The translations under genes and the position numbers were made by a program. From contig BOLA01000001.1 of assembly GCA_016861265.1 (NCBI GenBank), positions 1,023,745 to 1,087,744 of the forward strand: a stretch of DNA of 64,000 bases. Direction: 5' to 3'. This DNA is from Patescibacteria group bacterium. Its GTDB lineage: Bacteria; Patescibacteriota; Dojkabacteria; J137. Of the stretch, positions 7,501 through 55,179 are shown one piece after another. How positions within the stretch are numbered: the stretch's first letter is position 1; each line of letters starts with the position of its first letter. Under the pieces are notes generated by a model. It had not been told where the DNA came from. It did not search any database and worked only from the letters and a program-made list of their open reading frames with translations.

Positions 7501-7708
7501 TCATAATTATTTAAAATTAGTGTAAGCTTCACTTCCGACTATGTTAAATTTATCAAAGAGATACAATACTTTGATAAATTTATATAAGAACATCTGTAAG
7601 TCATTATTCACTTAGATTTCACCGATATTTTATTCTAGGGATTATAACACTAAAAGTATTGACAGCCTTTGTATTGCGATACAAATCTTATATATTTGCT
7701 AAAGAAGA

Positions 7709-31578: not shown

Positions 31579-33219
31579 ATGAGTAGACGTAATAAGATTT
31601 CTCCAAATCAAAGGCGCTTGTTCAGCATAGATGATAGCGATAATGTTACATATTTTTTGAACGGTTATCCTCAAACTCTGGAGCAACTTCAGCAAGGTGG
31701 GGATTTTGAAGATATTGATATATTTCTACAAGATACTTCATTAGATTTATTAGGCTATACGGATCAAATAGAAGCCATCCACGAAATTGCAAACCCTGAA
31801 AAAAAAGACGATAACACAGTGCAGTTGTCAATTTCGGATCTGGAAAAAATTAGGCGTATATTAACTGCAATTCCGCAGTTTAGAGATTTGGCAGCAGAAA
31901 AAAACGACGATATAGAATCAATTGAATTCCTAGCCGAAGCTGTGCAAACTATAGACTTTATGAGTCTGCCTCATTTTGATATCGATATGTCAATTTTCGA
32001 TGTGTTGGTTAAGAATAATCCTGAATATAGGGAATTTGTATTCGGAACACTAATGAGCCTTGTTAATGATATAGGCAGAAGTAATAAATTCCCTACCAGA
32101 AGGTATTTATCCAGGGTGTTTATTGACTTTACTGATAGTGAACTTGAAAAAGTTTATCAATTACTTAAAAGATTTTTAAGTATGTTAAATGCATGGGGGG
32201 GTATTCAAATACATTATTTTGAACAAACCGTAAGAGATTGGATGTATATAGTTTATGAACGCGGCGGGAATATGGATGTTGAGCAAATCTACAAATACTT
32301 GCAAACAAGGTATGCATGCAAGCCAGATTTTGAATTAAAGTATGTAGCAAATATGATTGCTAATTCAATATCATTTAATACAAACTTAGATGAGTTTGTG
32401 GATGAATTTATAAGATATATACATTGTTTTTCACCAGAAAAAAATATTTTCTTAACCCAAGAAGAAGTTTTCAGGTTGTGGACAAGTGAATTTCTAGTGC
32501 AAAGAATTAAGGATGCTGCACAAAAATGGAAGCATCGTATGTATGAATCAAGAGTTACAAGTCCAGAAGACGATTTAGAGGCGTATTTCGGAATTAGTAG
32601 AAGATTGTCTACAAGAGTTATGCAGAATCAACTGCCGCCAGAGGTCTGTTCAGAAGATTGCTTGAATGAATCGGTTATTAAACTAAAGATGTACTTTCCG
32701 GAGGGACATAGAACGCTTATCGAGGCAAGGCTCGATAGATTTATTAGAGTGAATGGTAGGGCTGAAATTTATGATTGGAAAACTAGGAAAAAGCAGATAG
32801 ATGAAATGAATGATTTTGAGAAGCTTCAAATTGTTTTGCAATGTATAGCACTACAAAATGTATTGGTGAGAACCTCGGAAGGTTCTATTTATACTCCTAT
32901 GGTTAATCAAGATTACAAGTTTTTTATTCAATCCACAAATCTAGAGTGGGTAAATTTACAAAGCCTGCCCAGTTTTTCACACATACCTGAGCAATCTGAA
33001 GGTCTATATGATTATGTTCAATTAAATATTGGTGAACAAGAGGCTCTTAGACTATTACAGAGTTTTTCTAGAATAGTTCATTTTTTAATTTGTAATAAAA
33101 AACAATTTGCAAGAATACGCCGTCACTTGAAAAATGTTGATAGTTACATTCCTGCTCCAAGGATCTTGGCACCGATATATGTTGAACAGAAAAATGTATT
33201 GGAACCGGTCGAAGCTTAA
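31579..33219 (+). CDS. hypothetical protein (546 aa), no recognisable motif
   Basis: Long ATG-start ORF with coding-like composition. By eye its GC looks slightly higher than the local average. Confidence 0.5.
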   Translation: MSRRNKISPNQRRLFSIDDSDNVTYFLNGYPQTLEQLQQGGDFEDIDIFLQDTSLDLLGYTDQIEAIHEIANPEKKDDNTVQLSISDLEKIRRILTAIPQFRDLAAEKNDDIESIEFLAEAVQTIDFMSLPHFDIDMSIFDVLVKNNPEYREFVFGTLMSLVNDIGRSNKFPTRRYLSRVFIDFTDSELEKVYQLLKRFLSMLNAWGGIQIHYFEQTVRDWMYIVYERGGNMDVEQIYKYLQTRYACKPDFELKYVANMIANSISFNTNLDEFVDEFIRYIHCFSPEKNIFLTQEEVFRLWTSEFLVQRIKDAAQKWKHRMYESRVTSPEDDLEAYFGISRRLSTRVMQNQLPPEVCSEDCLNESVIKLKMYFPEGHRTLIEARLDRFIRVNGRAEIYDWKTRKKQIDEMNDFEKLQIVLQCIALQNVLVRTSEGSIYTPMVNQDYKFFIQSTNLEWVNLQSLPSFSHIPEQSEGLYDYVQLNIGEQEALRLLQSFSRIVHFLICNKKQFARIRRHLKNVDSYIPAPRILAPIYVEQKNVLEPVEA

Positions 33220-33240: not shown

Positions 33241-33627
33241 ATGTCTTACTCCATTCTAAGTAGAAGAAGATTACATGAATTTGCTGAAGAGAGATCACAA
33301 CTTAGTGAGCTTGATACAAGACCACTACGATGCTCACATAACACTCATCTAAAGGGCTTAAAAGAATACGATGACACTGCATTCGGGCTACTGGTAACCG
33401 ATATTGAACACTATGCTTATCACTTAATCTTTAGAAAGGAACCTTACGTTATTGAGGTCCTAGGCTTAACTTATGAACAAAATTTATGGAGTCTAAACGA
33501 GATGTGGAAACAAATTATGTGGATCTCAGATAGTTTATGTTTAACTAAGGAGCAGGTACTGGAACAGGTAGAGAAAGCTAAGTTATATTGGTATGCAATG
33601 TTAGCAATTGATCCTATTGAGGCTTAA
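33241..33627 (+). CDS. hypothetical protein (128 aa)
   Basis: ATG-start ORF 21 nt after the 546-aa gene. Its 3' end overlaps the 3' end of the convergent helicase-nuclease by 14 nt. Confidence 0.45.
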   Translation: MSYSILSRRRLHEFAEERSQLSELDTRPLRCSHNTHLKGLKEYDDTAFGLLVTDIEHYAYHLIFRKEPYVIEVLGLTYEQNLWSLNEMWKQIMWISDSLCLTKEQVLEQVEKAKLYWYAMLAIDPIEA

Positions 33628-36600
33628 TTTCCTCCTCAATTTCGTTGAAGGTCTTACAGTATAGACATTCCTTACATGTTGGGTATTGCTCACTTCCAAA
33701 ATCCAAATTTCTTATTCTTGTTATAACATCTTTTATTTTCTCTTTTAAATCTGCAATATCTTCCGGAGTAATCTTAAATGATACACTTTTAAATTCTCCA
33801 TTGACTGCCGGCTTTAAATACTGAACAGTACTTTCAATTACTTTATAGTTGAGCATTGAATTAAATGGTTTAAAATTCTTATCCAAATCGGCAATTAATT
33901 TATAAAAAACTAATTGTCTAAATGTATCTCCCGTTGCGTTCTTATTCTCTCCCATTATTTCTTTCACTGATTTTGGTTTTGAAGTTTTATAGTCCACAAC
34001 TCTAACTTCGCCCCGAGTCTTATCTATCCACTCTATTCTATCTATCTTCCCACTTAATTTTAGTGGTTTAGTATTTTCATCCTCAAAATCCAATATTACA
34101 TTTTTGTTATTAAAACTATACTCAACATCCGCAGGTATACTAAACTCACCGTTGTAAAATTTATAATAGTCTTCAAGAATTTCTATGCCTTCCTCAAGTA
34201 TTACCTTATAATCATCAGGATCAATAATTTGTCTTTCTAAATTTGATATAAACATTTGAGTTAGGAACTCTAGATCTTTAGTCGTACCTTTAATTTGATT
34301 TCTTGCATATTGTTCTAAAGCATAGTGAATTGCAGTTCCTAATATTAAACTATTGTTTTTAGAATGGGGGGCATTTAGTAAATCCTCGAATTTAAATCTT
34401 AATGGGCAGTCAATGTACTTATTTAGTGAGGTAGCACTCAAGGAAAATCTATCTATCACCGAATTTAGGTACTCCTGCTCGGTGACTGAATACGGAGAAA
34501 AGCTATTGAATTTAAGCTTATTTAAGGCCTTTTGTTTATCAAATATATTTTCAGTTACCGCATTGACTTCTAGTAATTTATCTTGAAGTTCATTTATGAA
34601 CAAACTCGGTACTGTGGTCTTAACATTGTTGCCTTGAGGGTATTCTTTGGCATAGGTAATAAATAACTTTTCCTTTGCTCTTGTTAAGGCTACAAAGAAT
34701 AAACGTCTTTCGTCTTCGAGCTTATCCATTTTCAGACTTTCCGTGTCCTGTTCTCCCGTAAGATTATATATTTCGTCGGGCAGCGTGATTAATGAGCTAA
34801 CTTTTTTATTTCCCCACTTCTTATCCACACACTTTATTATGAATACATACTTATATTCTAATCCCTTTGACTTATGGGCCGTCATTAGGTTAACACCTTC
34901 TTTGTTTACCGAAACTTCAGTTTCTTGAATAGAAATAAAGTTATCTTCGAGTAATTTTAAATCTAATAGAAACTCCTCTAGCGATAGTTCTTTATTTGTT
35001 TGATTTATGCTTTTAACATACTCAAAAAAGGATTGAATCGAATTTATATTTTCAACATTATTTTGGATAAAGTAATGGTCCAAATAACCTGTTAAATCCA
35101 TTACCTTTTTAATAAAGTTGAGGAACATGTGATTAACTGAATCGCCCTTGAACTCCAATAACATTTCAGCAATATTATTAATTTTTTCTATTTCGGTAAT
35201 TCCGTTTAGTTGCAATTGCTCTTTATCCAGCATTAACTCAAATATACTTAGTCTTTTGTCATGGGCTATTTTTGTTAATTTAAAGCAATCGAGTCTTGAA
35301 ATCTTGAAAAATGGGTAGAAAATAATCTTAAAAATAATAGAGTCTCTATCTTTATCGGTGTAGCTAATTGCTTTTAGCAAGTTTATAAGCTGGATTACTG
35401 GTAATTGATTTAAAGAATTCTTCCCGGCAGCTAGTCTTACAGGTATATTGTTGTTTATTAAATCTAAGGCTATGTCCTCTCCATCCGAATGTTCTTTATA
35501 GAATATTGCAATATCAGAGTATTTAACTCCATTTGTTTCTAATTCTTTTATCTTATTAACTACGAAATTATTTTCTGCATCCTGGTTATTAAACTCAAAG
35601 ACTTCAGTTGGATGGTTAGGTATATTTAGACCCGCTTTTAGGTTCTTATTCAGACCCTCTATAAGTTTATTTAATCTTGCCTGATTATGGTCTACCAGTT
35701 TAGAAGATAAGTCTAAAATGTGTTGTGAAGATCGATAATTAATTGTGAGGCTAATAGTCTTTACGTCTTCAAATTGTTTTTTAAAGAAAAGTAAATTTTC
35801 GACGTTAGCTCCTTGAAATCTAAATATTGCTTGGTCGTCATCACCTACAGCAAATATATTGGGTCTTGTATCAAAGGAACCAAGAACCTTTAGAATTTCG
35901 TTTTGGGCACCATTAGTATCTTGATATTCATCTACAAGTATATATAAGTATTTTTCTTGAAGGCTAGCTAATAATTCGTCATCGGATTTTAGCTTGTCTA
36001 TTACAAATAGAATCATATCCTCGTAATCATAGAAGCCTTCCTCTGAAAGTGCATCGGTATACAACTGATATATTTCTGCCAACTCAAGATTCTTTGTGTA
36101 TTTATTTACTTTATCGGTATATTTACCTAACGGTTTACCGGTTTTCTTATTTAGTTCCGGATTTGCCTTTAACTCTTCTAGGACTTCTTCACAGATAGCT
36201 TTTAGTTCACTGGCTTTCTTGCCTTCTCTTTTGAGTGTTTGTATGCTGTCCAGAATGCTTTTTTGGTAGTAATACTTATCTCCGAAGGTAACTAACGAAG
36301 ACTTTCCGGTTTCTGCAACCTTATCAATAATTGATCGTATAATTTTAATTTTATTTAAATCGTCCAGTTGCTTAAGTTCTTTTTTGAATACAAATTTTTC
36401 GGGATTACTTTGAATTACATCGTTACAGAAGCTATGGAAAGTAAAGATTTTTACATACAGAGCGTCGTTACCTATAAGACCTAATAGTCTATTTCGCATA
36501 GCGTTTACACCAGAATCGGTGAAGGTTAGGCACAATATATTCTGTGATGATGCGTCTGTTTTGCTAAGTATATTGGCTATTCTATAGCTTAGAACCTGAG

Positions 36601-36712
36601 TCTTACCTGTTCCAGGCCCTGCTATAACTAAAACTGGTCCATCTATAGTGTTTACAGCTTCCTGCTGAGAAGGGTTCAGTCCTTTAATTTGTTCGTCAAG
36701 ATTAATCTTCAT
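33614..36712 (-). CDS. UvrD/PcrA-like SF1A helicase fused to a C-terminal RecB-family PD-(D/E)xK nuclease with Cas4/AddB-type Cys cluster
   Basis: N-terminus LNPSQQEAVNTIDGPVLVIAGPGTGKTQVLSYRIANIL (Walker A) and VDEYQDTN (motif II). C-terminus GKIDRIEWIDKTRGEVRVVDYKTSK (RecB nuclease motif), an upstream Cys (YIDCPLRF) and a terminal TCKECLYCKTF. Confidence 0.75.
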   Translation of the reverse strand: MKINLDEQIKGLNPSQQEAVNTIDGPVLVIAGPGTGKTQVLSYRIANILSKTDASSQNILCLTFTDSGVNAMRNRLLGLIGNDALYVKIFTFHSFCNDVIQSNPEKFVFKKELKQLDDLNKIKIIRSIIDKVAETGKSSLVTFGDKYYYQKSILDSIQTLKREGKKASELKAICEEVLEELKANPELNKKTGKPLGKYTDKVNKYTKNLELAEIYQLYTDALSEEGFYDYEDMILFVIDKLKSDDELLASLQEKYLYILVDEYQDTNGAQNEILKVLGSFDTRPNIFAVGDDDQAIFRFQGANVENLLFFKKQFEDVKTISLTINYRSSQHILDLSSKLVDHNQARLNKLIEGLNKNLKAGLNIPNHPTEVFEFNNQDAENNFVVNKIKELETNGVKYSDIAIFYKEHSDGEDIALDLINNNIPVRLAAGKNSLNQLPVIQLINLLKAISYTDKDRDSIIFKIIFYPFFKISRLDCFKLTKIAHDKRLSIFELMLDKEQLQLNGITEIEKINNIAEMLLEFKGDSVNHMFLNFIKKVMDLTGYLDHYFIQNNVENINSIQSFFEYVKSINQTNKELSLEEFLLDLKLLEDNFISIQETEVSVNKEGVNLMTAHKSKGLEYKYVFIIKCVDKKWGNKKVSSLITLPDEIYNLTGEQDTESLKMDKLEDERRLFFVALTRAKEKLFITYAKEYPQGNNVKTTVPSLFINELQDKLLEVNAVTENIFDKQKALNKLKFNSFSPYSVTEQEYLNSVIDRFSLSATSLNKYIDCPLRFKFEDLLNAPHSKNNSLILGTAIHYALEQYARNQIKGTTKDLEFLTQMFISNLERQIIDPDDYKVILEEGIEILEDYYKFYNGEFSIPADVEYSFNNKNVILDFEDENTKPLKLSGKIDRIEWIDKTRGEVRVVDYKTSKPKSVKEIMGENKNATGDTFRQLVFYKLIADLDKNFKPFNSMLNYKVIESTVQYLKPAVNGEFKSVSFKITPEDIADLKEKIKDVITRIRNLDFGSEQYPTCKECLYCKTFNEIEEEIKPQ

Positions 36713-36800: not shown

Positions 36801-37028
36801 CTATTCCAAGTCTTCTTCCGTTTTGGTTGATGACTTGGGTGTTTCTGATCTATCCATAACATGAGTAATGAATTGCTCTTGCAGGTATCGATTATCGCGT
36901 TTAATATCTTCCTTTAGTATTTCTAGCTCTAACCATCTTTGGAAGGGAGCTAGTAATACATCGAAGATAAAATCAATAAACTTAGCCCACAAGTACCCAG
37001 GTATCTTGAGCATCATTATACCTTTCAT
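36801..37028 (-). CDS. small hypothetical protein (75 aa)
   Basis: ATG-start ORF upstream of the helicase-nuclease on the same strand. Confidence 0.35.
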   Translation of the reverse strand: MKGIMMLKIPGYLWAKFIDFIFDVLLAPFQRWLELEILKEDIKRDNRYLQEQFITHVMDRSETPKSSTKTEEDLE

Positions 37029-37135
37029 ATCTCGCTATATATTTTGATTATATATCTCTTTGTCATTTTCTGTCAAAGCTTAAACTGTGATTGAATTACT
37101 AGCAACTTGATTAATCAATTGATACAATATTTATT

Positions 37136-38863
37136 ATGAGATTTAATGCATCGGCAAAAGAGGTTAAGGCATTTATTCTACTATTAATATTAATGATTGT
37201 AGTTGGATTTATTAATGGCGTACCCTTTGTTTTCGGCGATGCTTACGGTTACTTTCATGTCGCAAAATCTTCAATTGACAATGGCTATTACCCCTCATCT
37301 CAACAACCGGAATACTTTGATTATACGGGACATGCAGTAGTTGAATCCAATGAGAAATACATAACTCCATATAGTGTTGGGCAAACAATTTTATATTTCC
37401 CCTTCTTAACAACGTCGATGTTATTTAGTAAGGGAACAATATATACAGATTATTACAAGGCATTTAATGGTCATTCATTTGCTGATGGCATGGCAATTCT
37501 TGCAGCTGCAATGTTCTTTGCATATCTAGGAATAATTTTCTGTTATTTATTTCTTAAACAGTTGGGTTTTACAAAAAAGGTATCATTTTATTCCTCACTA
37601 GCAATGTTTATTGGAGTTTACTTAACATCGTATACCTTTGAACAACCTGGTTATAGTCATGTCTATGAGTTCTTTTCTTATTCAGCATTCTTGTATTTCT
37701 TTATAAAATTTTTCTTTGAGAGAAGTTCTAAATATTTATATATTGCTACAATTTTTGCGGGACTTTTAGTGTTAATTAGAATAGTCGATTCTGTGTTGTT
37801 AATCCCTCCATTTTTATTTGTGCTTTATAAAATGCGTAGCAAGAAGCTTCTACTGACTACTAGTCTTATTGTGGCTGTATTTGGAATCTTCTTTTTACTG
37901 TACAACTATATATCTTATGAAAATCCGTTAACTGTTGGTTATTCTACAAATGGGCAGAATGGGTTTAATTTTGGACTAAATATTATAAATTTGCTATTTA
38001 GTGATACACGAGGCTTGCTTGTCTGGTCGCCAATAGTATTTGTTGCACTAATTGGCATAGCGCTGTATGCAAGAAAATCAAAAATTGCGTTAGTCTTCTT
38101 CCTTATACCAGCACTTTTTCTAATGGTTGTTTATAACTTTTGGGGAAACTGGTGGGGAGGAGTTTCTACTGGACAAAGATTTTTAACTGTACTAGCACCA
38201 ATTTTTGCTCTAGGAATTGCATATTTCTACAATCAGATTAAATTTAAGAGACTTACCAAGTTTGGTCTTCTCGTACTTGTTCTATTTTCAACTGTTACAG
38301 CAATATTTTACAGATTAACTCCAGTATTAAGAGTTAGTTCAGAGTTTAGAAATGACCAGTATGCGTTAACGACACCCGTAACGGAAGACTACAGACTAAC
38401 CGATTTATTTAAATACCACATTAACTTAATTTCGAATAAAAAAAGTCTTAGTGGTTATTTAAATCAGCTTAAAGATAGCTTTAATGGAGGTAGAAGTATT
38501 CTTTTGCTTGCCTTGGGGCAAACCGATCCACTTGTTAGGATTAACCAGGTTGAGGATTTAAAATACAAGGTTTACTTTATACCAAATAATATCAATAAGA
38601 ATATAAAGGCTAATTTAATATTAAGCATAAATTACAAGGATTTATACAAGTCATTTTTAGTATCTGGGGTTGATATGCATAAGGCTGAAAGTGCATTCAT
38701 TACCTGCACCAAATCATTAGACTGCAGCTCCACTGAAATTAATCTAATTCCAATTCTCGCGGATAAATCAAAAGAAAACTTTGCCAGAGTAAGCAATAAT
38801 TCAAAAATCTCTGTGTATGGTGAAAATGTAAGGGTTAACTATGTAAATCTTAAACTTAAATAA
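37136..38863 (+). CDS. polytopic membrane protein (many TM helices plus C-terminal soluble domain); possible GT-C-type glycosyltransferase
   Basis: More than 10 hydrophobic segments in residues 1-400 followed by a roughly 170-aa hydrophilic tail. No diagnostic motif. Confidence 0.5.
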   Translation: MRFNASAKEVKAFILLLILMIVVGFINGVPFVFGDAYGYFHVAKSSIDNGYYPSSQQPEYFDYTGHAVVESNEKYITPYSVGQTILYFPFLTTSMLFSKGTIYTDYYKAFNGHSFADGMAILAAAMFFAYLGIIFCYLFLKQLGFTKKVSFYSSLAMFIGVYLTSYTFEQPGYSHVYEFFSYSAFLYFFIKFFFERSSKYLYIATIFAGLLVLIRIVDSVLLIPPFLFVLYKMRSKKLLLTTSLIVAVFGIFFLLYNYISYENPLTVGYSTNGQNGFNFGLNIINLLFSDTRGLLVWSPIVFVALIGIALYARKSKIALVFFLIPALFLMVVYNFWGNWWGGVSTGQRFLTVLAPIFALGIAYFYNQIKFKRLTKFGLLVLVLFSTVTAIFYRLTPVLRVSSEFRNDQYALTTPVTEDYRLTDLFKYHINLISNKKSLSGYLNQLKDSFNGGRSILLLALGQTDPLVRINQVEDLKYKVYFIPNNINKNIKANLILSINYKDLYKSFLVSGVDMHKAESAFITCTKSLDCSSTEINLIPILADKSKENFARVSNNSKISVYGENVRVNYVNLKLK

Positions 38864-39084: not shown

Positions 39085-40128
39085 ATGTTCAGACCAAATT
39101 TCAACTACACAGATAAACTTGTTACCTCTTTAGTAAAACTCGAAAATCTAAAGGCACAATTGGCATCAATGGATTTTTCTTATCCAGTAAAGCATAAGCT
39201 TTCAATGAATGCCAAAACTCAAGACATATTTCATCTAGGTCATATTCTTGGCTTAGACATGACACTAAAGGATGCCGAAAAAATTGCTGGTGGCTTAAGA
39301 CTAGATGGTTTCAAGGATCAAAACGCATACATTTTGGGTAATTTCAGAAATGCTTTGGAATTCAATAGATCTAATATTGCCGATACATATTCAGAAATTG
39401 ACTTTACAGTTTTATTACATGTAAATAAATTAATTACTTCTTCCTGGAGAGAATCATGGGATTCAAGATTCCGAAACGAAAATGATGAATTCGTAGACAA
39501 AGATGAATGGTCAGGTTTAAGAGATATTTCAGTAACTGGTGACCAGGTTCAAAACTCTATGATTGAACTGGTTGAATGGTATAAATCTGCAGCACCATCA
39601 ATTACTCCAATTATAAGAATAGGAATTACTCTATTTAGAATTACGGAAGTAGCACCATATTACACGGCTAATATGCTTAGTGTAATTGGTTTAGCTGATT
39701 ATCTATTTGTAAAAAACGGATTTGCGGGTAAAATCTACTCATCTTTTGTTCGAAACTTTGATTTAAACAAAGCAGCATACAAGGAAGCCTTTGAAGTTTC
39801 AAAAAAAGCTAACGATATTACTTATTGGCTAGAAGTTCTTTCTGATAATTTAATAAAAGAGTTATCCGAAACACGGGAAGACATGAGTAAATTAAATGAA
39901 GATGATGAGAAGGCTAAGAATCAACCTTTCTTAGATCTAAACAAAAGGCAGTTAAAAGTATTAAGGTACCTACAAACTGTACCTATGATTAAAAGAGAAG
40001 ATTATTGTCATATGATGGAAGTTTCTACTATGACTGCATTCAGAGACCTAAATGATTTAGTAAGGAAAAAGCTTATTAAAGTCGAAGGCAAAGGAAGAGG
40101 GACTAAATATAGATTATCAAGCATGTAA
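39085..40128 (+). CDS. Fic/DOC-family-like protein with degenerate active-site motif and C-terminal winged HTH
   Basis: APYYTANMLSVIGLADYLFVKNGF aligns to HPFx(D/E)GNGRxxRLLxxLxLxxxGY, but His, Asp/Glu and Gly-Arg are replaced. C-terminus ...AFRDLNDLVRKKLIKVEGKGRGTKYRL is wHTH-like. Confidence 0.4.
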   Translation: MFRPNFNYTDKLVTSLVKLENLKAQLASMDFSYPVKHKLSMNAKTQDIFHLGHILGLDMTLKDAEKIAGGLRLDGFKDQNAYILGNFRNALEFNRSNIADTYSEIDFTVLLHVNKLITSSWRESWDSRFRNENDEFVDKDEWSGLRDISVTGDQVQNSMIELVEWYKSAAPSITPIIRIGITLFRITEVAPYYTANMLSVIGLADYLFVKNGFAGKIYSSFVRNFDLNKAAYKEAFEVSKKANDITYWLEVLSDNLIKELSETREDMSKLNEDDEKAKNQPFLDLNKRQLKVLRYLQTVPMIKREDYCHMMEVSTMTAFRDLNDLVRKKLIKVEGKGRGTKYRLSSM

Positions 40129-40142
40129 TTAACAATTAATTT

Positions 40143-41438
40143 ATGAAAAGACTAAAACAGATTTATATCTTTGTTTTTATTATAGTTTTAGGTTTATTGA
40201 TACTTCCTCAATTTAATCTAAAGATTGGTGAAAACGAATTTCAATACCCTAACATTGATTTTAGCTCTGTTAATTCAAGTGCTACTTTGGGTAACTTTAG
40301 TAGAGGCTATGACTTATACGATTCCAAAATGTATACAGCTACAGTGAATGTAGATTCAACTCTAACTATAGAAGAAAGAGAAAGGCAATTAAGAGATTTA
40401 GTAGAAGTTATCAGAAATAGAATTAATTATTCTAATTTACACGACATTTATGTAAATGGTGCAATTGAAAACGACACTTATAAATTAAATCTTTCATTCC
40501 CAGACTATATTCAGGAAAGTGATATTATTGCAAAATACTTGGTCGGTAAGGGAGAAATCTTCTTTGAGAATGATCCTCAGGTGTCCCAAACGGGTGTTGC
40601 ATTAAAAGATACAGACATTGTGGGACAAATTAAGAGCATCTACGATGAACAGTATGGAAATGTTTTATCGTTTAAGTTTGCTAATACTGCTTTAACAAAC
40701 TTTTACTTTGCACTGCAAAATACTAATAACTACTTTTTAATGCGAGTAGATTCTACTTACTTTGCAGTTATTCAAGACCCAAATTATACCAACACACAGA
40801 GCCTTGATCTTCAGACTTCTGCAATTGCAGTCCCGTTCGCCGAAGTAAAACTTAGTCCAAATGTAGCAATGTATACAAATATTGTTAGGTCTTACTTTTT
40901 AACTTCTCCTTTAGTAGTTGATGTAAATCTTGATCCAAACTTTAAAACCATTAAAAGAGACTTTGTAGCAGATAAAATCAGCTACATTGCTATATTTATT
41001 GTAGCGGCTGTTGCACTATTAATGTTAATGTACGCTTCTAAAAAAGGCATGACAAAAACAATTAAATTTGTCTTAATGTTAGGTAGTTACATGGTTCTAT
41101 TAACCTTCCTATTAAAGCTTTTATCAGCAACTTTATCGGTAAATTTATTATTAGGCTTTATTCTCGGTTTAATAATAGTTGTATATGCTATAGAAAAGTT
41201 ATTATCGACTGAAGAGGATCAACAAAGGACTTTCTTAAATGTAATAAATTATTATTGCATCTTTATTGCACTAGTAATATTTACAATATATAGATTCTTG
41301 CTTGCGGGAAATACAATGACAGATGCGTTTGGTACATTATTAGCATCGGTAATTTCCTTGCTGTTTCTTTCATATGTTAACTTTAAATTCATACTTGACT
41401 TAGAACCAAATTTTAAACCTTTTAGAAAAAGATTATGA
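40143..41438 (+). CDS. membrane protein: N-terminal anchor, large extracytoplasmic domain, C-terminal 4-5 TM bundle
   Basis: Hydropathy pattern. Its stop overlaps the next start (ATGA at 41435). Confidence 0.5.
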   Translation: MKRLKQIYIFVFIIVLGLLILPQFNLKIGENEFQYPNIDFSSVNSSATLGNFSRGYDLYDSKMYTATVNVDSTLTIEERERQLRDLVEVIRNRINYSNLHDIYVNGAIENDTYKLNLSFPDYIQESDIIAKYLVGKGEIFFENDPQVSQTGVALKDTDIVGQIKSIYDEQYGNVLSFKFANTALTNFYFALQNTNNYFLMRVDSTYFAVIQDPNYTNTQSLDLQTSAIAVPFAEVKLSPNVAMYTNIVRSYFLTSPLVVDVNLDPNFKTIKRDFVADKISYIAIFIVAAVALLMLMYASKKGMTKTIKFVLMLGSYMVLLTFLLKLLSATLSVNLLLGFILGLIIVVYAIEKLLSTEEDQQRTFLNVINYYCIFIALVIFTIYRFLLAGNTMTDAFGTLLASVISLLFLSYVNFKFILDLEPNFKPFRKRL

Positions 41439-42364
41439 ACAGACTTAAATTAGCATTACCTTACATTACAGTAATATTATTTGTAGCTTCGCTTGGTTTA
41501 TTTGTATTTAACCATGGATTTAAATACGATGACTACGAGAATTATATTAGGGTTCAGATTAATGGAACCGAAAATGTAGATTTATTTATAGAAAGACTTA
41601 GAGATACAAGTGGATTAATAGAATTAGATAAGGCAAATAACTTTGCCTACTATCAACAAGTAGATAAGACAGTTGTAGAAGAAAATCTCAATAATGTTAA
41701 AGAGGATTATCCTGAAATTGAGACTACTGTTGAAACTATTTATCCATCAGTTTCAAAAAAACAAAGAATCATTGATTTAGCTTTAACTACAACTTTGATT
41801 ATTGTATTGTTTGCGGCATTCAGTTATGTAACCAAAACACGTGCCTTTAACTGGAACCTAAAAGAATATGCTAAGTATTATGGTCTATATTTTGCAGATA
41901 ATATATTATCTTTAGGAATATTGGCTGGACTTGTTAGTTTATTATCATTGGTATATAAAATAAACGATTATGTACTATTCTCATTCTTTGTGTTGGTAAT
42001 TGTAAAAACATCAATTTATTGGTTTAAATTACTTCAAGAAGACATTAACCAAATGAAGACTCATTTTGTGGAAAATTTTGTTAATGACTCAAGAAAAATC
42101 TTTGTAGTCGCATTAATACTTTGCGTGTTATTGGCTGTAGGTATGGGAGTAAGAAGTGTTATTCCACTAGCCTTTATTTTAGTAGCTATTATTGTTAATT
42201 TCTTGACTAACTACTCGATATTAACGTTTCAAGTTCCTAAATTCAGAAGGGCCCTTGAGCATCAGGTGGAAAATAGAGAAAAGACTCAAACCAAACCAGA
42301 AAAAACAGAGAAAAAGTATGTTCCAAACCCTAAATTAAAGAAAAAGAATAAAAAGAAGAAATAA
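41435..42364 (+). CDS. membrane protein with similar topology and a Lys-rich C-terminal tail (KKKNKKKK)
   Basis: Translationally coupled to the upstream gene. Followed by a strong terminator. Confidence 0.5.
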   Translation: MNRLKLALPYITVILFVASLGLFVFNHGFKYDDYENYIRVQINGTENVDLFIERLRDTSGLIELDKANNFAYYQQVDKTVVEENLNNVKEDYPEIETTVETIYPSVSKKQRIIDLALTTTLIIVLFAAFSYVTKTRAFNWNLKEYAKYYGLYFADNILSLGILAGLVSLLSLVYKINDYVLFSFFVLVIVKTSIYWFKLLQEDINQMKTHFVENFVNDSRKIFVVALILCVLLAVGMGVRSVIPLAFILVAIIVNFLTNYSILTFQVPKFRRALEHQVENREKTQTKPEKTEKKYVPNPKLKKKNKKKK

Positions 42365-43808: not shown

Positions 43809-44612
43809 ATGGAATCAATAATTATAGATAATGTAAAAATTACTCATCCAAATAAGGTATTGTTTCCTGAGTCAGGTATTACTAAGCTTGACCTGATAAA
43901 TTATTATAAAAGTGTATCAGATAAATTTATAAAGGAAGTAATGAATAGGCCAATAAGCATGGTAAGAAGTCCTAATGGAATTAAAGGTCCCAAATTCTAC
44001 CAGAAACACCCTACCGAATCCTTTCCCGAATACGTAGAAAGAGTCAAGATAAAAGAAAAAGATGAATACGATGCTTATATAACTATAGATCAATTGAACG
44101 ATATTTTATATTTAGTAAATATTGGTGTATTAGAATTTCACATCTGGGGTAGCAAAATTCAAGATATTGAAACCCCAGACAGAATTATCTTTGACTTAGA
44201 TCCATCAAATCAAGACGACTCAAAATTAAGGGAGCTAGCATTACTCATAAAAAAAATACTTGAAGATAATGGCTATAAGCCGCTCCTAAAGACTTCCGGT
44301 TCTAAAGGCTTTCATGTTTACGCCGATGTTAGCGAAAGAAGATTCTCCTGGGACGATATTAAACTTATTTCTAAGACAATTGCAGAATCTATTGTAAGAA
44401 TAAATCCCAAGGAATATACAATTGAATTTAGAAAGGAAAAGAGACAAGAAAAAATATTTATTGATTATTTAAGAAATGAACGAGGGTCGACTATGGTCGC
44501 ACCCTACTCCATTAGAATTAAGGAACACGCTCCCATTTCAATGCCTATAAGCTGGAGTGAACTAAAAAATATAAGTCCACAAAGCTATAACATAAATAAC
44601 TATAAAAAATAG
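43809..44612 (+). CDS. stand-alone LigD-type polymerase domain (archaeo-eukaryotic primase, NHEJ PolDom)
   Basis: All three AEP motifs are present: I IIFDLDPS, II LKTSGSKGFHVY, III IFIDYLRNERGSTMVAPYSIR. The N-terminus ...THPNKVLFPESGITKLDLINYY... matches LigD Pol. Confidence 0.8.
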   Translation: MESIIIDNVKITHPNKVLFPESGITKLDLINYYKSVSDKFIKEVMNRPISMVRSPNGIKGPKFYQKHPTESFPEYVERVKIKEKDEYDAYITIDQLNDILYLVNIGVLEFHIWGSKIQDIETPDRIIFDLDPSNQDDSKLRELALLIKKILEDNGYKPLLKTSGSKGFHVYADVSERRFSWDDIKLISKTIAESIVRINPKEYTIEFRKEKRQEKIFIDYLRNERGSTMVAPYSIRIKEHAPISMPISWSELKNISPQSYNINNYKK

Positions 44613-45781: not shown

Positions 45782-47014
45782 TTGTTCGAACCCATACCCT
45801 CAAAATTTAGACCGGAGACTCTAGATGAATTTATTGGACAACAGCATTTGGTGGGGAAAGGCATGCCTATTCGTAATTTTATTGAATCAGGTAATATTCC
45901 ATCAATGATATTTTGGGGACCTCCTGGAACAGGTAAGACTACGCTTGCAAATATTATTTCTAAAAGTGTTAATGCGAATATCCATAAATTATCCGCGGTC
46001 ATGGCAGGAAAAACTCAGTTAATGGAAATTGTTGATCAGGCTATTCACGAAAATAAAGATAATAAACTATTTGAACCTAAAAAAACAATTTTATTCCTAG
46101 ATGAAATTCACAGATGGAATAAATCTCAACAAGACTCGCTATTGCCTTATGTGGAAAAAGGAATAATTATATTGATTGGAGCAACAACAGAAAATCCATC
46201 ATTCTCATTAAATCCTGCTTTACTATCAAGAGCCAGAGTATTTACATTTAAAAAACATACATCAGAAGATGTAAAAAAATATCTGCTTTATTTAATAGAG
46301 AAGGTAAAACTAGAAACACCAACCCTGGATTACGATCCCGATGTTATTGAACTAATTGCAAAGTCTTCTGATGGAGACTTAAGAACATCGGGCAATATTT
46401 TAGAAACTGCAATTTATTTATCTAATGGCAATAAGATAAATAAAGACACCTTAAAGAATGCATTGGAAAACTTTCTTCAATACGAAAAAACCGGTGAGGA
46501 TCACTACAATATAATATCTGCAGTTCATAAATCACTGCGAGACTCCGATGCCACCGCTGCAGTTTACTGGGTAGTGCGAATGTTGCAGGCTGGAGACGAT
46601 CCTCTTTATATCTGCAGAAGGTTACTAAGGTTTGCTTCCGAGGATATAGGTAACGCTATGCCAAATGCGGTAGTGCTTGCCAACTCTGTGTTTGAATCAT
46701 GTCAAAAACTGGGTCGACCTGAGTGTGATATTTTTATTGTACAGCTAGTAGAATATTTAGCTAAGGCGCCCAAAAGTAATGCGGCTTATCTAGCATTGGC
46801 ACAAGCTCAATCCGATGTTTCGGAATTTGGTTCATTGCCGGTACCATTAAATATTCGCAATGGTGTTACAAAGTTAATGAAGGATTTAGGTTACGGCAAG
46901 GGGTATAAATACGCTCATGACTTTAAAAATGCCAAAGTGAACCAACAGCACCTACCCGATGAACTTAAAAATAGAAATTACTTTAAGCAGGAAATAAAAA
47001 AGGAAGACAATTAA
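45782..47014 (+). CDS. rarA: replication-associated recombination protein A (AAA+ ATPase)
   Basis: Walker A MIFWGPPGTGKTTLA, Walker B ILFLDEIHRWNKSQQD and a MgsA C-terminal domain. The track start is TTG. Confidence 0.85.
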   Translation: MFEPIPSKFRPETLDEFIGQQHLVGKGMPIRNFIESGNIPSMIFWGPPGTGKTTLANIISKSVNANIHKLSAVMAGKTQLMEIVDQAIHENKDNKLFEPKKTILFLDEIHRWNKSQQDSLLPYVEKGIIILIGATTENPSFSLNPALLSRARVFTFKKHTSEDVKKYLLYLIEKVKLETPTLDYDPDVIELIAKSSDGDLRTSGNILETAIYLSNGNKINKDTLKNALENFLQYEKTGEDHYNIISAVHKSLRDSDATAAVYWVVRMLQAGDDPLYICRRLLRFASEDIGNAMPNAVVLANSVFESCQKLGRPECDIFIVQLVEYLAKAPKSNAAYLALAQAQSDVSEFGSLPVPLNIRNGVTKLMKDLGYGKGYKYAHDFKNAKVNQQHLPDELKNRNYFKQEIKKEDN

Positions 47015-51819: not shown

Positions 51820-53610
51820 ATGCAAAGATTGTTAGAAAAGATTAATGCCCATCCAAGGGCTACACTTATTGCGGTCGGAACAACTGTTTTCGGAGCCGCC
51901 GCATTAGTTATTTTACTTATGTTCCTTTCGTTAAGAGAGAGTGTTGTTAACCCCACTGTAACTCCAGAAGAGGAAAAAATGGTTTTATCCGAGGTTATAA
52001 AGAACAATCCAAGTGGAGTTATTAATAATCCAGGTAATTCAAGCACACCGATGCCTTCACCTAACCCTACACCTGTGCCAACACCAAACCCTACACCAGG
52101 TGTAGTGAATCCGAATCCTGAGACTCCTCAGCCAGAACAACCAGTGGCCCCAAATATAAATGAGTATAACTATAGAGTTACTAGGGTTACTAACCAAAGA
52201 GGTCCATCCTTTGATGCATGCCAAATGTATTATGGCGGAGGTTATGGTTATGGACCGGATGTAACAGAAAGCGATTCAGTATCTGAATATTATGAATATT
52301 TTGAAAGATACGTGAGCATTTATAAGAATCAAACAAAAGAAGATAATAAATTATCCTCTTACTACTTAAGCAAGTATGGAAGAAATGTTAATTCAACAAC
52401 ATATTACCTAGGAGGTAGTTATGCTGTAGAGAATTCTTATAAACCGTATGATCAATTTGATAATCAGCAAGACACTCAAGTTGTCTCTTACCCTACTTAT
52501 ACTGCTGACGAATATATTAAGTTATATTTTGGTTCCAATGCATCTGTTACAGGTGTTGAAACTGATTCAAATGGAGTTAAACACTATACAATAAGAAGCA
52601 GTTATACTTCTTATTGTGATCCGTCTTACGAGCAATACCTAGTTAGTGATGTAGTTCCACCGGCTTTAAGAACTATTTATTCAGTTTATAGAGTTAACGG
52701 TCAAACCTTCTCAATAGAACAAATAAAGACTTACATTGATGAAGTAAAAGATGCGAATTTAATTAAGGTATCAACTACAGAATCAACAAGATCTAAGGTA
52801 ACTTACACTCAAGTAGAGGCTCAGTTTAGGATTGCTTCTAATGTTCCGATAACAAAAAATGATTATAGTCATATTACATATAACTACGATCCTCTAAAAT
52901 CAATTAGGGATAATCTAACGTATCTTGCCATGATAAATGACGATATTTTATTACCATCTTCTACAGAAGGCCTTACAAATTTATGGGTAGATGGTTATGT
53001 GGATGCTAATTATGTAAATTCCACAGAATTCTATCAGGATAGAGACTTTTTCCCTGACTCTGACTGGGGAGATGAATTATATGCAAGATATAATACATCT
53101 GCTAATTATGTTAATAAGACATTGTATTCGATATCAATAACTCCTGAGTATGGTAAATACTACTCTATTTCTGCATATAAAGATGATCAACTATTTGATG
53201 ATATTATTTCAGAATTAATGAAGGGTACTGCTACTTCTAAGAGTATTGAAGATATTACAATAAATGTATCGGGTTTACCTGTAGAAGGTAAGAAGATTTC
53301 TAAAGTATTTACATATAAATTCCCAACATCCTACGGTGTATCTTACCCTGTATCTTATAGCTCAGATTCAAATACTAATTATTTTACTAACTATGTATTT
53401 GAGTACAATGGGAGAGTTTATGGCGTAAGCTACTATAGTTACAACCAACAAATGGATTTAGATATGAATGAATATAGTATTTATCCACTAACAACAGAAC
53501 TTGAAGCAGAAACAATGAGGAATTTGTTAACAGATATGTGGTCTAGGTATTTACAAATAGTAAATCCTGTTAGCTACCCTACGAGTTTTCCAGTAAGTTA
53601 TTCTTACTAA
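51820..53610 (+). CDS. secreted or membrane-anchored Pro/Thr-rich, Tyr-rich protein with C-terminal (V)SYP(V/T)S(Y/F) repeats
   Basis: Signal anchor AVGTTVFGAAALVILLMFLSL. Linker PSPNPTPVPTPNPTPGVVNPNPETPQPEQPVAPN. Repeats SYGVSYPVSYSS and VSYPTSFPVSYSY near the C-terminus. Confidence 0.55.
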   Translation: MQRLLEKINAHPRATLIAVGTTVFGAAALVILLMFLSLRESVVNPTVTPEEEKMVLSEVIKNNPSGVINNPGNSSTPMPSPNPTPVPTPNPTPGVVNPNPETPQPEQPVAPNINEYNYRVTRVTNQRGPSFDACQMYYGGGYGYGPDVTESDSVSEYYEYFERYVSIYKNQTKEDNKLSSYYLSKYGRNVNSTTYYLGGSYAVENSYKPYDQFDNQQDTQVVSYPTYTADEYIKLYFGSNASVTGVETDSNGVKHYTIRSSYTSYCDPSYEQYLVSDVVPPALRTIYSVYRVNGQTFSIEQIKTYIDEVKDANLIKVSTTESTRSKVTYTQVEAQFRIASNVPITKNDYSHITYNYDPLKSIRDNLTYLAMINDDILLPSSTEGLTNLWVDGYVDANYVNSTEFYQDRDFFPDSDWGDELYARYNTSANYVNKTLYSISITPEYGKYYSISAYKDDQLFDDIISELMKGTATSKSIEDITINVSGLPVEGKKISKVFTYKFPTSYGVSYPVSYSSDSNTNYFTNYVFEYNGRVYGVSYYSYNQQMDLDMNEYSIYPLTTELEAETMRNLLTDMWSRYLQIVNPVSYPTSFPVSYSY

Positions 53611-53673: not shown

Positions 53674-54588
53674 TTATCTTTCTAGTTCTGTAACTATATC
53701 TCTTAATTCTGCAGCCTTCTCAAATTCCAGCATATCTGCAAATAGCTGCATTTGGAATTTTATTTCTTTTAAGAGCTTCTTCTGATCCGATTTACTCATT
53801 GCTCTAAATCCTTCAGCTTTTTTAACAATATCTTGTTCTTTTTCCTCATCGGACATATTTTCATTAGATTGTTCTGAGAATGCCGAAAGCTGATCTTTTA
53901 TTTCTTTGACTATAGTTCTAGGAGTTATTCCATGAGCCTTATTAAACTCATCTTGTATTTTTCGTCTTCTACGTGTCTCTTCAATCGCGAATTGCATCGA
54001 ATCTGTGATCTTATCGGCATACATTATTACTCGACCTTCCTGGTGCCTTGCAGCTCTACCAATAACCTGAATTAAGCTGGTCCTTGACCTTAGAAAACCT
54101 TCTTTGTCTGCATCTAAAATTGCTACTAAGGATACCTCCGGTAAGTCTAATCCTTCCCTTAATAAGTTTATGCCAACTAATACATCGTAAACTCCTAGTC
54201 TTAAGTCTTTTAGAATTCGCACTCTTTCCATTGAATCGATGTCGGAGTGTAGGTACTTAGCCTTAATTCCCTTCTCAGTTAAGTAATCGGAAAGCTCCTC
54301 GGACATTCTTTTTGTTAGTGTTGTAACTAGTACTCTTTGTTTCTTTTCTACTGTTTTATCAATTTCATCTATTAGATTAGGTACTTGAGGTTGTGACCAA
54401 GAAGATTCATTCAATATTGGCATCTCAGTAAAACCCTTTTCTATAAGGTTTTTCTTTAGGTTCTCGAAGGTTTCAGGTAACGATGGTCTTACTTCTACTA
54501 TAGGATCCAAAAGACCTGTCGGTCTAATTATTTGGTAGACAATTCCATTGTAGTCTTTTGGTAGTGTACTCATGCCTAATTTTAACAT
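53674..54588 (-). CDS. uvrB: UvrB C-terminal half only (helicase domain 3 + UvrC-interacting UVR domain); N-terminal ~410 aa absent
   Basis: [17 protein letters not shown]...[27 protein letters not shown]...VIGRAARH... and the C-terminal UVR helix-hairpin ...[24 protein letters not shown]. The dcd stop is only 27 nt upstream, so there is no room for the Walker-A N-terminal half. Confidence 0.7.
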
Positions 54589-54615: not shown

Positions 54616-55179
54616 TTAACGTTTTTTGTTAGATTTTTTACTTTCAATATCTTTAAATACTCTGCTGCCAACAGTATCTTTTTGTCCTTGATATTTACCT
54701 ACATAAGGACTCTCGGCATGGTCATCCATAAAACAGAATACAAACTGACAAATTCGTCTATTTTTCTCTAAGATTATTGGAAGAGAATTAGCATTGTAAA
54801 GTTCCAATGTAACCTTTCCCTTAAAACCTGGATCTACCCAACCTGCATTTTGAATAAACAGGCCCATTCTACCTATTGAACTTCTTCCTTCAACAAATGC
54901 GGTAATGTTATCCGGTAATTCAATATACTCTACTGTTGTAGCTAGTATAAAACTATGAGCGGGTATTGTTATGGAGTCCTTAACTACTTTTCTGTAAATA
55001 ATTTCATCACTCATACTAATTGCACTCATAGCAGAGCTGTCAATTTCTAAGAATGTATCTCCTAACCTACAATCAATAGATGCTGGTTGAATTGATTGTT
55101 CGTTTATTGGATCTACAACTAAGTCACCTGATTTTATGAGTTTCTTTAAAGTTTTATCTGAAATAATCATACTAAACAA
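54616..55179 (-). CDS. dcd: dCTP deaminase
   Basis: ...SIQPASIDCRLGDTF...GRSSIGRMGLFIQNAGWVDPGFKGKVTLELYN... matches the Dcd/dUTPase-fold signature. Confidence 0.85.
   Translation of the reverse strand: MFSMIISDKTLKKLIKSGDLVVDPINEQSIQPASIDCRLGDTFLEIDSSAMSAISMSDEIIYRKVVKDSITIPAHSFILATTVEYIELPDNITAFVEGRSSIGRMGLFIQNAGWVDPGFKGKVTLELYNANSLPIILEKNRRICQFVFCFMDDHAESPYVGKYQGQKDTVGSRVFKDIESKKSNKKR

Follow-up and report, generated by a model that had tools for sequence, protein, structure and literature searches.

A gene on the minus strand of a 64,000-nucleotide (nt) stretch of DNA from a small-genome, Dojkabacteria-like Patescibacteria group bacterium (contig BOLA01000001.1, positions 1,023,745 to 1,087,744; the whole 64-kb stretch is referred to below as the window) encodes a single chain of 1032 amino acids (aa) in which an intact superfamily 1A (SF1A) helicase motor is followed by a nuclease of the Cas4/AddB type with a four-cysteine site. 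This order, with a UvrD-like SF1 helicase as the N-terminal partner of a Cas4-like pfam12705 nuclease, is the architecture of the UvrD-Cas4-like fusions (Hudaiberdiev et al., 2017, PMC5704561), and the protein is assigned to them on the basis of this architecture and of the description of the published set. Its identity and architecture are hardly in doubt. That it is a stand-alone helicase-nuclease of this family, engaged in the ATP-dependent processing of DNA ends, is a reading which as a whole we favour with reasonable confidence, and a role in end resection or in housekeeping, taken alone, is proposed tentatively, as having somewhat less than an even chance.

The combination of motor and nuclease in one chain had been noticed in a preliminary description of this locus, made from the letters of the DNA, and both Pfam and the motifs bear it out. 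The motifs quoted there are all in place (GPGTGKTQV at aa 32-40, DEYQD at 261-265, GKIDRIEWID at 888-897, VVDYKTSK at 905-912, CKECLYC at 1013-1019 and the upstream Cys at 769). The gene is as follows.

33614..36712, minus strand: helicase-nuclease gene, complete with its stop codon, 1032 aa (from the list of open reading frames, ORFs, and the translation).

The frame, for which the preliminary description named no strand, is uninterrupted on the minus strand, and the plus-strand translation is full of stops. Its ATG at 36712 comes immediately behind an in-frame stop codon, which makes the start unambiguous, and a 3.1-kb frame that has upwards of 7800 homologues (E<=1e-10), in DNA of about 33% G+C, lies far outside what chance would give. 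The protein is 99% identical to P0001, and a further 119 listed homologues, of about 1000 aa, are 81-37% identical; those named are from metagenome-assembled genomes (MAGs) of Candidatus Dojkabacteria and other Patescibacteria (the candidate phyla radiation, CPR). Pfam divides the chain into UvrD-helicase (PF00580, aa 12-314, 220.5 bits against a threshold of 23), UvrD_C (PF13361, aa 320-689, 127 bits against 25.6) and PDDEXK_1 (PF12705, aa 757-1018, 100 bits). A 90%-identical relative (locus L007, contig CAYUKX010000031.1, 4314..7573) has its helicase-nuclease frame split into 4314..7085 and 6962..7573, which suggests a frameshift; the gene may be a pseudogene in that MAG, or the assembly may be in error.

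The helicase half comprises the following features, all read from the sequence apart from the core, which is supported by Pfam, relatives in the PDB and Foldseek.

34646..36679, minus strand: SF1A UvrD/PcrA-type helicase core, aa 12-689, domains 1A/1B/2A/2B.
36599..36622, minus strand: Walker A (motif I), AGPGTGKT, aa 31-38.
35918..35932, minus strand: Walker B (motif II), DEYQD, aa 261-265.
35807..35848, minus strand: helicase motif III, VGDDDQAIFRFQGA, aa 289-302.
34676..34882, minus strand: helicase motifs V (TAHKSKGLE, aa 611-619) and VI (DERRLFFVALTRA, aa 667-679).

Motifs Q, I, II, III, IV, V and VI are intact, and their defining residues are invariant in 72 aligned homologues of 37-81% identity. 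These include G32, P33, G34, G36, K37 and T38 of motif I, D261, E262, Q264 and D265 of motif II, F299, Q300 and G301 of motif III, and T611, K616, G617, R669, R670, T677 and R678 of motifs V and VI. Since the residues of all SF1A motifs are invariant, an active motor is predicted. In motif III, FRFQGA, Phe299 takes the position of the base-stacking Trp in PcrA/UvrD/Rep and AdnB, and Phe in this motif is the pattern of AddA and RecB; the canonical UvrD of locus L026 reads IYGWRGA. Trp325 of AdnB is described as a ratchet pawl (PMC13000450).

Among solved helicases the nearest by sequence is PcrA (258 bits), followed by UvrD and Rep, with AddA (65), AdnB (57), RecB (43) and AdnA (26) well behind. 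The AlphaFold2 (AF2) model of the full-length protein has a predicted local distance difference test score (pLDDT) of 86.9 and a predicted template modelling score (pTM) of 0.71, with pLDDT below 50 in the linker between the two halves, and in Foldseek its top matches are again PcrA/UvrD/Rep (PcrA/UvrD E ~4e-41), after which come whole-chain alignments to AddA, RecB, AdnA/B and AddB. AddAB, the system against which the preliminary description had set the protein, is hence not the best frame of reference, because the helicase resembles PcrA/UvrD/Rep more closely than it does AddA. None of the NCBIfam equivalog models reaches its cut-off, whether for pcrA (341 bits, cut-off 911), uvrD (280 against 1144 and 287 against 965), rep (299 against 951), addA (addA_Gpos 134 against 708, addA_alphas 142 against 861) or recB (132 against 696), and the helicase therefore constitutes a subfamily of its own.

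This kinship could mean that the protein is the organism's housekeeping UvrD/PcrA, serving nucleotide excision repair, mismatch repair and fork clearing, while its nuclease degrades the displaced strand in place of exonucleases lost from a reduced genome. Relatives are labelled 'DNA helicase II / PcrA' by JGI (other database labels are ATP-dependent helicases or PD-(D/E)XK nucleases), a fragment of uvrB in the window points to the existence of excision repair, and the 64-kb window holds no other UvrD-like gene. Such an identity is nevertheless unlikely given how far the PcrA, UvrD and Rep scores lie from their cut-offs (341 against 911 and 280 against 1144, for example), the Phe in motif III where PcrA and UvrD have Trp, and the presence in Shapirobacteria of both a canonical UvrD and the fusion. 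The C-terminal region of PcrA binds RNA polymerase, and in the fusion the nuclease stands in its place. The Shapirobacteria gene (L026 3317..5188, 623 aa), a canonical nuclease-less UvrD/PcrA, lies in a MAG about 5 kb upstream of the fusion, so that the fusion is not simply that organism's UvrD, and this suggests that it does something other than the UvrD/PcrA job. With this UvrD as query, the best 120 matches all belonged to the Microgenomates group. A second nuclease-less UvrD (L032 ~2937..4856, ~620-640 aa) stands about 5 kb upstream of a fusion on a contig labelled Methanoperedens, which is probably a mis-binned CPR contig.

The nuclease half is defined by the following features, the domain from Pfam PF12705, the AF2 model and Foldseek and the motifs from the sequence.

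33659..34444, minus strand: C-terminal PD-(D/E)XK (RecB/Cas4-type) nuclease domain, aa 757-1018.
33977..34051, minus strand: RecB nuclease motifs II and III, GKIDRIEWID...VVDYKTSK, aa 888-912, with D891, D907 and K909.
33902..33916, minus strand: QxxxY motif of Cas4/RecB-family nucleases, Q933...Y937, with Q933, F936 and Y937 invariant.

No variation is seen at H796, E864, D891, D907, K909, Q933 and Y937 in any of 73 homologues, and 134 of 135 further representatives, at <=50% identity, likewise keep these residues. Together the E, D, D-x-K and QxxxY motifs, one N-terminal Cys and three C-terminal Cys place the domain in the broad Cas4/AddB/Dna2-type class. Sequence searches of the PDB were nearly blind to it, the single sequence matching AddB alone and marginally (E 0.16) and a 26-sequence profile of the domain finding nothing relevant there, so that a comparison of folds was needed. 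The AF2 model of the domain (pLDDT 94.7) matched AdnA best (9np6_A, E 2e-7 over 258 columns), followed by AddB (E 3.4e-7) and ACE1 of the Cas4 family (E 5e-7), and then Cas4 SSO0001 (E 1.5e-4), AddA (E 1.9e-3) and RecB (E 1e-2), the matches to AddA and RecB being 10^4-fold weaker than those to the iron-sulfur (Fe-S)-bearing AdnA, AddB and ACE1/Cas4. This ranking places the modelled domain in the Fe-S-bearing branch of the RecB-like nucleases. A comparison of the kind that the preliminary description had suggested, with AddA, AddB, AdnB and Cas4, thus puts the nuclease nearest to AdnA, AddB and the Cas4 family and far from AddA and RecB.

Models of individual families did not capture the domain. 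The NCBIfam model addB_alphas scored 31 bits (cut-off 486), the Cas4 model TIGR00372 scored 31.5 (cut-off 65) over aa 761-808 only, and Pfam Dna2 covered aa 758-822 around the first Cys with 20.3 bits, below its cut-off of 22.4; PF01930 (Cas4), which is precomputed for some relatives, had no match to the 1032-aa protein. Judged by the NCBIfam cut-offs applied to its sequence, the protein is not AddA, AddB, RecB, PcrA or Cas4.

The same evidence bears on whether the protein might be the AddA of a canonical AddAB, or the RecB of a RecBCD, with its partner (AddB, or RecC/RecD) encoded elsewhere. The layout, helicase and then C-terminal RecB-type nuclease, is shared with AddA and RecB, the whole-chain Foldseek alignments to both are strong (E 1e-36 to 1e-27), and the addA and recB NCBIfam models do match weakly. 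These matches are, however, those given above at 134 against 708, 142 against 861 and 132 against 696, the helicase is much nearer to PcrA/UvrD than to AddA or RecB, and the nuclease is AddB/AdnA-like rather than AddA/RecB-like and carries four Cys, which AddA and RecB are not known to have. Genes of addAB, adnAB and recBCD are normally adjacent, and no AddB-, RecC- or RecD-type partner adjoins the gene in the window or in 34 related loci. We therefore consider it extremely improbable that the protein is AddA or RecB, and the possibility raised in the preliminary description that it is simply AddA falls away on both its scores and its nuclease fold.

The four Cys lie at the two ends of the nuclease domain.

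34406..34408, minus strand: Cys769 (in YIDCP), putative first ligand of the cluster, close to the N terminus of the nuclease domain (from the sequence).
33656..33676, minus strand: C-terminal Cys triad CKECLYC, with C1013, C1016 and C1019 (from the sequence).

The Fe-S 'staple' of AddB and Cas4 has this topology, a single ligand coming from the beginning of the domain and the other three from its end, and by analogy the four-Cys site is most probably such a 'staple'. The preliminary description had given the arrangement as C-Xn-C-X2-C-X3-5-C; the four-Cys arrangement stands, but the last gap is of two residues and not three to five. The spacing is C-X243-C-X2-C-X2-C, in place of the canonical CX2CX5C of Cas4/AddB/Dna2, and CX2CX2C is found across the Dojkabacteria clade, whereas more distant relatives do have CX2CX5C.

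Conservation of the Cys among homologues, on which the preliminary description had made its case depend, was borne out, and they co-vary as a unit. The position of Cys769 is Cys in 65 of 73 aligned homologues, with Ser or Asp solely where the C-terminal Cys are also gone. Among 252 family members with a complete nuclease domain, 206 have the complete set (Cys1 and at least three C-terminal Cys), 33 have lost it (no Cys1 and at most one C-terminal Cys) and four are discordant (Cys1 alongside at most one C-terminal Cys, or the opposite pattern), nine with Cys1 and just two C-terminal Cys being counted as concordant; the co-variation of Cys1 with the C-terminal Cys has a Fisher p of ~1e-36, a value not corrected for phylogeny. 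Spacings in the 206 complete sets include X2/X5 (86), X2/X2 (80), X4/X2 (14) and X6/X5 (11). When a neighbour-joining tree is computed on the helicase part only, the proteins without Cys fall into two distinct clades, both lying within Cys-bearing groups, so that the four-Cys module has disappeared as a whole on at least two occasions while the catalytic residues remained. As judged from these sequences, the four Cys behave as one dispensable unit. The natural variants, namely CX2CX5C, CX2CX2C, CX4CX2C and two Cys-free clades that retain the active site, are material for questions about the role of the cluster in Cas4/AddB/Dna2-type nucleases.

A partner was sought with hidden Markov models (HMMs) of the helicase and nuclease halves, applied to the 64-kb window and to the 34 related loci with up to 10 kb of flank each. 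The window contains no helicase or nuclease paralogue, and the flanks contain none except the nuclease-less UvrD of L026 and L032; nor does either hold the separate AddB-like partner that, according to the preliminary description, would have made the protein simply AddA. No neighbour family is conserved across the 34 loci, the best being a divergent membrane protein of ~585 aa found at nine loci, all of them close relatives, and none is kept beyond the closest Dojkabacteria. A genome scan found a single fusion locus per genome among 29 genome loci, but it detects close relatives only, so that a diverged partner may be encoded elsewhere.

These searches bear on an arrangement like that of AdnAB, in which the protein would be a homodimer, or would pair with a diverged paralogue encoded elsewhere, one protomer leading and two nucleases cutting both strands. 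AdnA and AdnB are both chains of a UvrD-like motor and a RecB-like nuclease (PMC13000450), the nuclease domain finds its top structural match in AdnA, and the full-length model, superposed over more than 1000 columns, fits AdnA and AddB at a root-mean-square deviation (rmsd) of ~14-15 Å as against ~30 Å for AddA and RecB. Of the features that mark AdnAB, an AdnA-like nuclease fold is present in the model but an adjacent paralogous gene pair is absent from the window and the flanks of the related loci. With one fusion locus in each genome of the scan, with no paralogue within 10 kb on either side of any locus apart from the two nuclease-less UvrD genes, and with the activity of the related protein ZomB reported for a single purified protein (PMC9453066), an AdnAB-style dimer is given only a small chance.

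Two genes on the opposite strand adjoin the 3' end of the fusion.

31579..33219, plus strand: 546-aa PD-(D/E)XK-like ORF with motifs RLDRF and YDWK (Pfam PF12705, 24.5 bits against a cut-off of 22).
33241..33627, plus strand: 128-aa ORF with no family match, its 3' end overlapping that of the helicase-nuclease gene by 14 nt.

Both lie between a NUDIX gene and the helicase-nuclease gene, the 546-aa ORF two genes downstream of the latter and convergent with it. The pair is present at L004 and L007, the only related loci where the 128-aa ORF was found; L006 has the 546-aa gene alone, and both are missing at L001, L002 and L005. The pair looks like a gained or lost cassette, and the 546-aa ORF may be a lineage-specific associate of the fusion. 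Somewhat further, this sub-lineage could have a two-component machine to which the 546-aa protein contributes a second nuclease, standing in functionally for AddB in minimal form. Its Pfam PDDEXK_1 score exceeds the cut-off, D386...D399-W-K401 is invariant in its family, its gene follows the fusion directly and converges with it in the window and L004, in L007 and in L006, and there are suggestions that the family may occur on the same contigs as P0005 and P0008. This is nonetheless very unlikely. The family has nine homologues in 5.8 billion clusters as against thousands for the fusion, the gene is absent from L001, L002 and L005, the last of these 81% identical in its fusion, and its orientation precludes co-transcription with the fusion. 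The 546-aa protein has no helicase-like domain and no Cys cluster, matches no NCBIfam model (hence no AddB model) and no PADLOC model, and has ~290 N-terminal aa without a recognisable domain; its profile shares negligible similarity with the nuclease domain of the fusion (hhalign probability 2.7%). As a candidate for AddB itself, it was rejected on the tiny family, the patchy presence, the convergence and the want of a helicase-like region and of a Cys cluster.

The fusion belongs to a large established family, as follows from the number of homologues (more than 7800) and from the 1,562 clusters that a profile of the nuclease domain recovers at E<=1e-30 (17,376 cluster representatives, at 50% identity, at E<=1e-3), most of the 1,562 being ~1000 aa long with the nuclease domain C-terminal. 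The novelty implied by the preliminary description does not hold, because the architecture was published in 2017 (PMC5704561) and the related ZomB has been purified and biochemically characterised (PMC9453066). UvrD-like SF1 helicases fused to Cas4-like pfam12705 nucleases form the largest branch of pfam12705, are reported to be monophyletic and occur in many bacteria and in mesophilic archaea, often as stand-alone genes and sometimes with genes for Type III restriction-modification or Dcm/Vsr as neighbours (Hudaiberdiev et al., 2017, PMC5704561). The present fusion is one more member of this family, from the CPR, and its discovery adds little beyond the published architecture.

Such contexts raise the question of whether the protein is a component of anti-phage or anti-plasmid defence. 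An ancillary or defence role has been suggested for the fusions from the defence-type contexts described by Hudaiberdiev et al. (PMC5704561). Full-length relatives from outside CPR, with 25-31% identity and the same catalytic and Cys positions, are found on plasmids of Hymenobacter, where the gene adjoins the BREX-1 genes brxL/pglZ/pglX, and of Methanomethylovorans, where it is near csa3 and other helicase genes; four full-length relatives in all are on plasmids, and none was found in phage records. PADLOC gives strong matches to the GajB helicase models of Gabija, but these, like a DRT-helicase match, are generic and cover the UvrD helicase core only; no GajA-type neighbour was present among the three ORFs scanned, and these neighbours, of 546, 128 and 575 aa, matched no PADLOC defence model. 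The fusion is widespread across Patescibacteria lineages as a single locus in housekeeping contexts, partly syntenic and lacking a conserved partner, among glycosyltransferases, NUDIX, YchF and tRNA-Thr. The window contains no CRISPR-typical tandem array, and no cas domain was found by Pfam in 40 other window ORFs, 14 further ORFs of >=100 aa being outside that scan. A defence function for the gene studied here is accordingly thought improbable.

A DNA-end-processing enzyme is the reading that we develop here, and what we infer of its enzymatic activity, metal, strand cut, oligomeric state and cellular role is as follows. The SF1A motor would bind single-stranded DNA or a DNA end, translocate 3'-to-5' on ATP and unwind the duplex, and the nuclease, hanging on a flexible linker (aa ~726-745), would cut the single strands produced by the motor through H796, E864, D891, D907 and K909 with Mg2+/Mn2+. 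A metal cluster would join both ends of the nuclease domain, C769 at its start and C1013, C1016 and C1019 at its end, as an Fe-S 'staple' that may be structural or may guide the DNA, by analogy with AddB, AdnA, Cas4 and Dna2. From the better fit of the full-length model to AdnA and AddB, the nuclease may be positioned close to the fork, as it is in those proteins, although this is only a hint because model confidence in the linker is low. In the cell the enzyme would resect double-strand breaks to feed RecA and/or degrade unwound strands during repair, as a one-chain counterpart of AddAB, AdnAB or RecBCD. CPR bacteria, among them Roizmanbacteria, have been reported to be without RecBCD (PMC6509639), and the fusion is possibly the lineage resection enzyme of Patescibacteria.

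Several observations weigh against this account, beginning with the defence-like contexts of the non-CPR full-length relatives, including the BREX-1 genes in Hymenobacter, and the published suggestion of an ancillary or defence role. The CX2CX2C spacing is unlike that of every characterised Cas4/AddB/Dna2 cluster, so that the metal could differ (e.g., Zn), and ~13% of relatives manage without the Cys, so that the cluster is not essential to the family. With a linker pLDDT below 50 and a pTM of 0.71, the AF2 model gives an uncertain arrangement of domains, and the activity of the protein and of its Patescibacteria orthologues is predicted from sequence. The searches covered the window and the flanks of 34 loci, and a partner, or a separate AddAB or AdnAB, may be encoded elsewhere in the genome. 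Finally, a canonical UvrD is encoded 5 kb away from the fusion in the Shapirobacteria genome.

If the housekeeping interpretation is correct, the fusion would serve a very large, little-studied branch of bacteria as its minimal enzyme of end resection, and would offer a simple one-chain model of the coupling of a helicase to an Fe-S nuclease. A bolder version, in which it is the sole double-strand-break resection machine of Patescibacteria, the 3'-5' motor pulling the tracking strand and the Fe-S nuclease, positioned as in AddB and AdnA, cutting the displaced 5' strand, and in which the two or more losses of the four Cys show that the 'staple' is dispensable, is speculative and appears rather doubtful. 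If it were true, the fusion would be a minimal one-chain equivalent of AddAB or AdnAB, and the four-Cys losses would be a natural experiment on the dispensability of the Fe-S 'staple' in RecB-family nucleases.

Upstream of the gene lie the following features.

37047..37076, minus strand: predicted promoter-like site, TTGACA-18 nt-TATAAT, 12 of 12 matches (consensus scan).
36801..37028, minus strand: small upstream ORF, 75 aa, between the promoter-like site and the helicase-nuclease gene.
37136..38863, plus strand: 575-aa ORF, multi-pass membrane protein with a weak LA_3751/2 glycosyltransferase-family match; the sole neighbour conserved across Dojkabacteria.

The promoter-like site, read from 37076 to 37047, is the sole perfect match to the sigma-70 consensus in the 4-kb region scanned and stands upstream of both the 75-aa ORF and the helicase-nuclease gene, which are on the same strand and possibly co-transcribed. 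A counterpart of the 75-aa ORF is annotated as a 70-aa gene in L004 and L005, where tblastn gives 93% and 40% identity, respectively (L005 being the 81%-related locus), and tblastn found no match in the remaining loci. About 3 kb from the helicase-nuclease gene of L001, on a 1.1-Mb Dojkabacteria-like contig, is a gene of the Rad52/Rad22 single-strand-annealing family (4114..4704, PF04098).

Other genes of the window are also relevant to DNA metabolism. A 304-aa ORF (53674..54588, minus strand) corresponds to the C-terminal half of UvrB only (Pfam Helicase_C, UvrB, UVR), and tblastn with E. coli UvrB as query aligned residues 397-665 only, the N-terminal half being nowhere in the window; uvrB may be split, truncated or interrupted here. 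The 304-aa ORF is immediately preceded, on its own strand, by a dCTP deaminase gene (54616..55179, minus strand) and a 608-aa ORF (55187..57013, minus strand) whose sole Pfam match is ThyX (aa 95-300), with no PDB sequence match. A stand-alone LigD-type primase-polymerase domain protein of 267 aa (43809..44612, plus strand; PF21686, 270 bits), with no ligase or Ku domain in the two adjacent ORFs scanned, is encoded near a RarA/MgsA gene (45782..47014), a position conserved in L006, and may be relevant to the handling of DNA breaks in these bacteria. ORFs of 846, 596, 575, 347, 431 and 309 aa (3311..5851, minus strand; 51820..53610, 37136..38863 and 39085..42364, plus strand) have no Pfam match at E<=1e-3, and three tRNAs are the only structured RNAs found in the window.

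Comparison with known systems places the protein closest to the UvrD-Cas4-like fusions described in 2017, with which it shares its layout, its Cys cluster and its stand-alone or non-conserved contexts, although the published account stressed defence contexts and genomes that also have RecB, whereas the present gene has a housekeeping context in a group reported to be without RecBCD. ZomB, encoded on ICESp23FST81 of Streptococcus pneumoniae, combines a UvrD-like helicase with two Cas4-like domains, and the purified protein has an ATPase stimulated by single-stranded DNA and is a potent ATP-dependent nuclease on linear double-stranded DNA (Stevens et al., 2022, PMC9453066). It is likened to the present protein by its described architecture and activity, and differs in its two Cas4-like domains, its location on an integrative conjugative element and its link to pneumolysin expression, the present protein being chromosomal with one nuclease domain. 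PcrA, UvrD and Rep have the closest helicase core by sequence and fold, but they lack a nuclease and have Trp in motif III where Phe is found here.

The resemblance to AddB is confined to the nuclease, which has RecB motifs and one N-terminal and three C-terminal Cys in both proteins. AddB works only with AddA, and its helicase-like region is inactivated and recognises Chi (PMC3321194), whereas the helicase motifs of the present protein are intact. AdnA of mycobacterial AdnAB has a UvrD-like module followed by a RecB-type Fe-S nuclease, as here, and it keeps its Walker motifs. It differs in being the non-leading 'motor-like' subunit of an obligate heterodimer encoded beside adnB, while the present protein has invariant motor motifs and no adjacent paralogue. 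The Fe-S subdomain of AdnAB is in AdnA, at the DNA fork (PMC13000450). Dna2 acts in end resection and, like the present protein, has an Fe-S PD-(D/E)XK nuclease and an SF1 helicase in one chain. Its nuclease is N-terminal and its helicase is of the SF1B type with 5'-3' polarity, whereas here an SF1A helicase comes first and the nuclease second. The joining of a helicase or helicase-like module to an Fe-S nuclease in one chain is hence a feature that the present protein has in common with both AdnA and Dna2.

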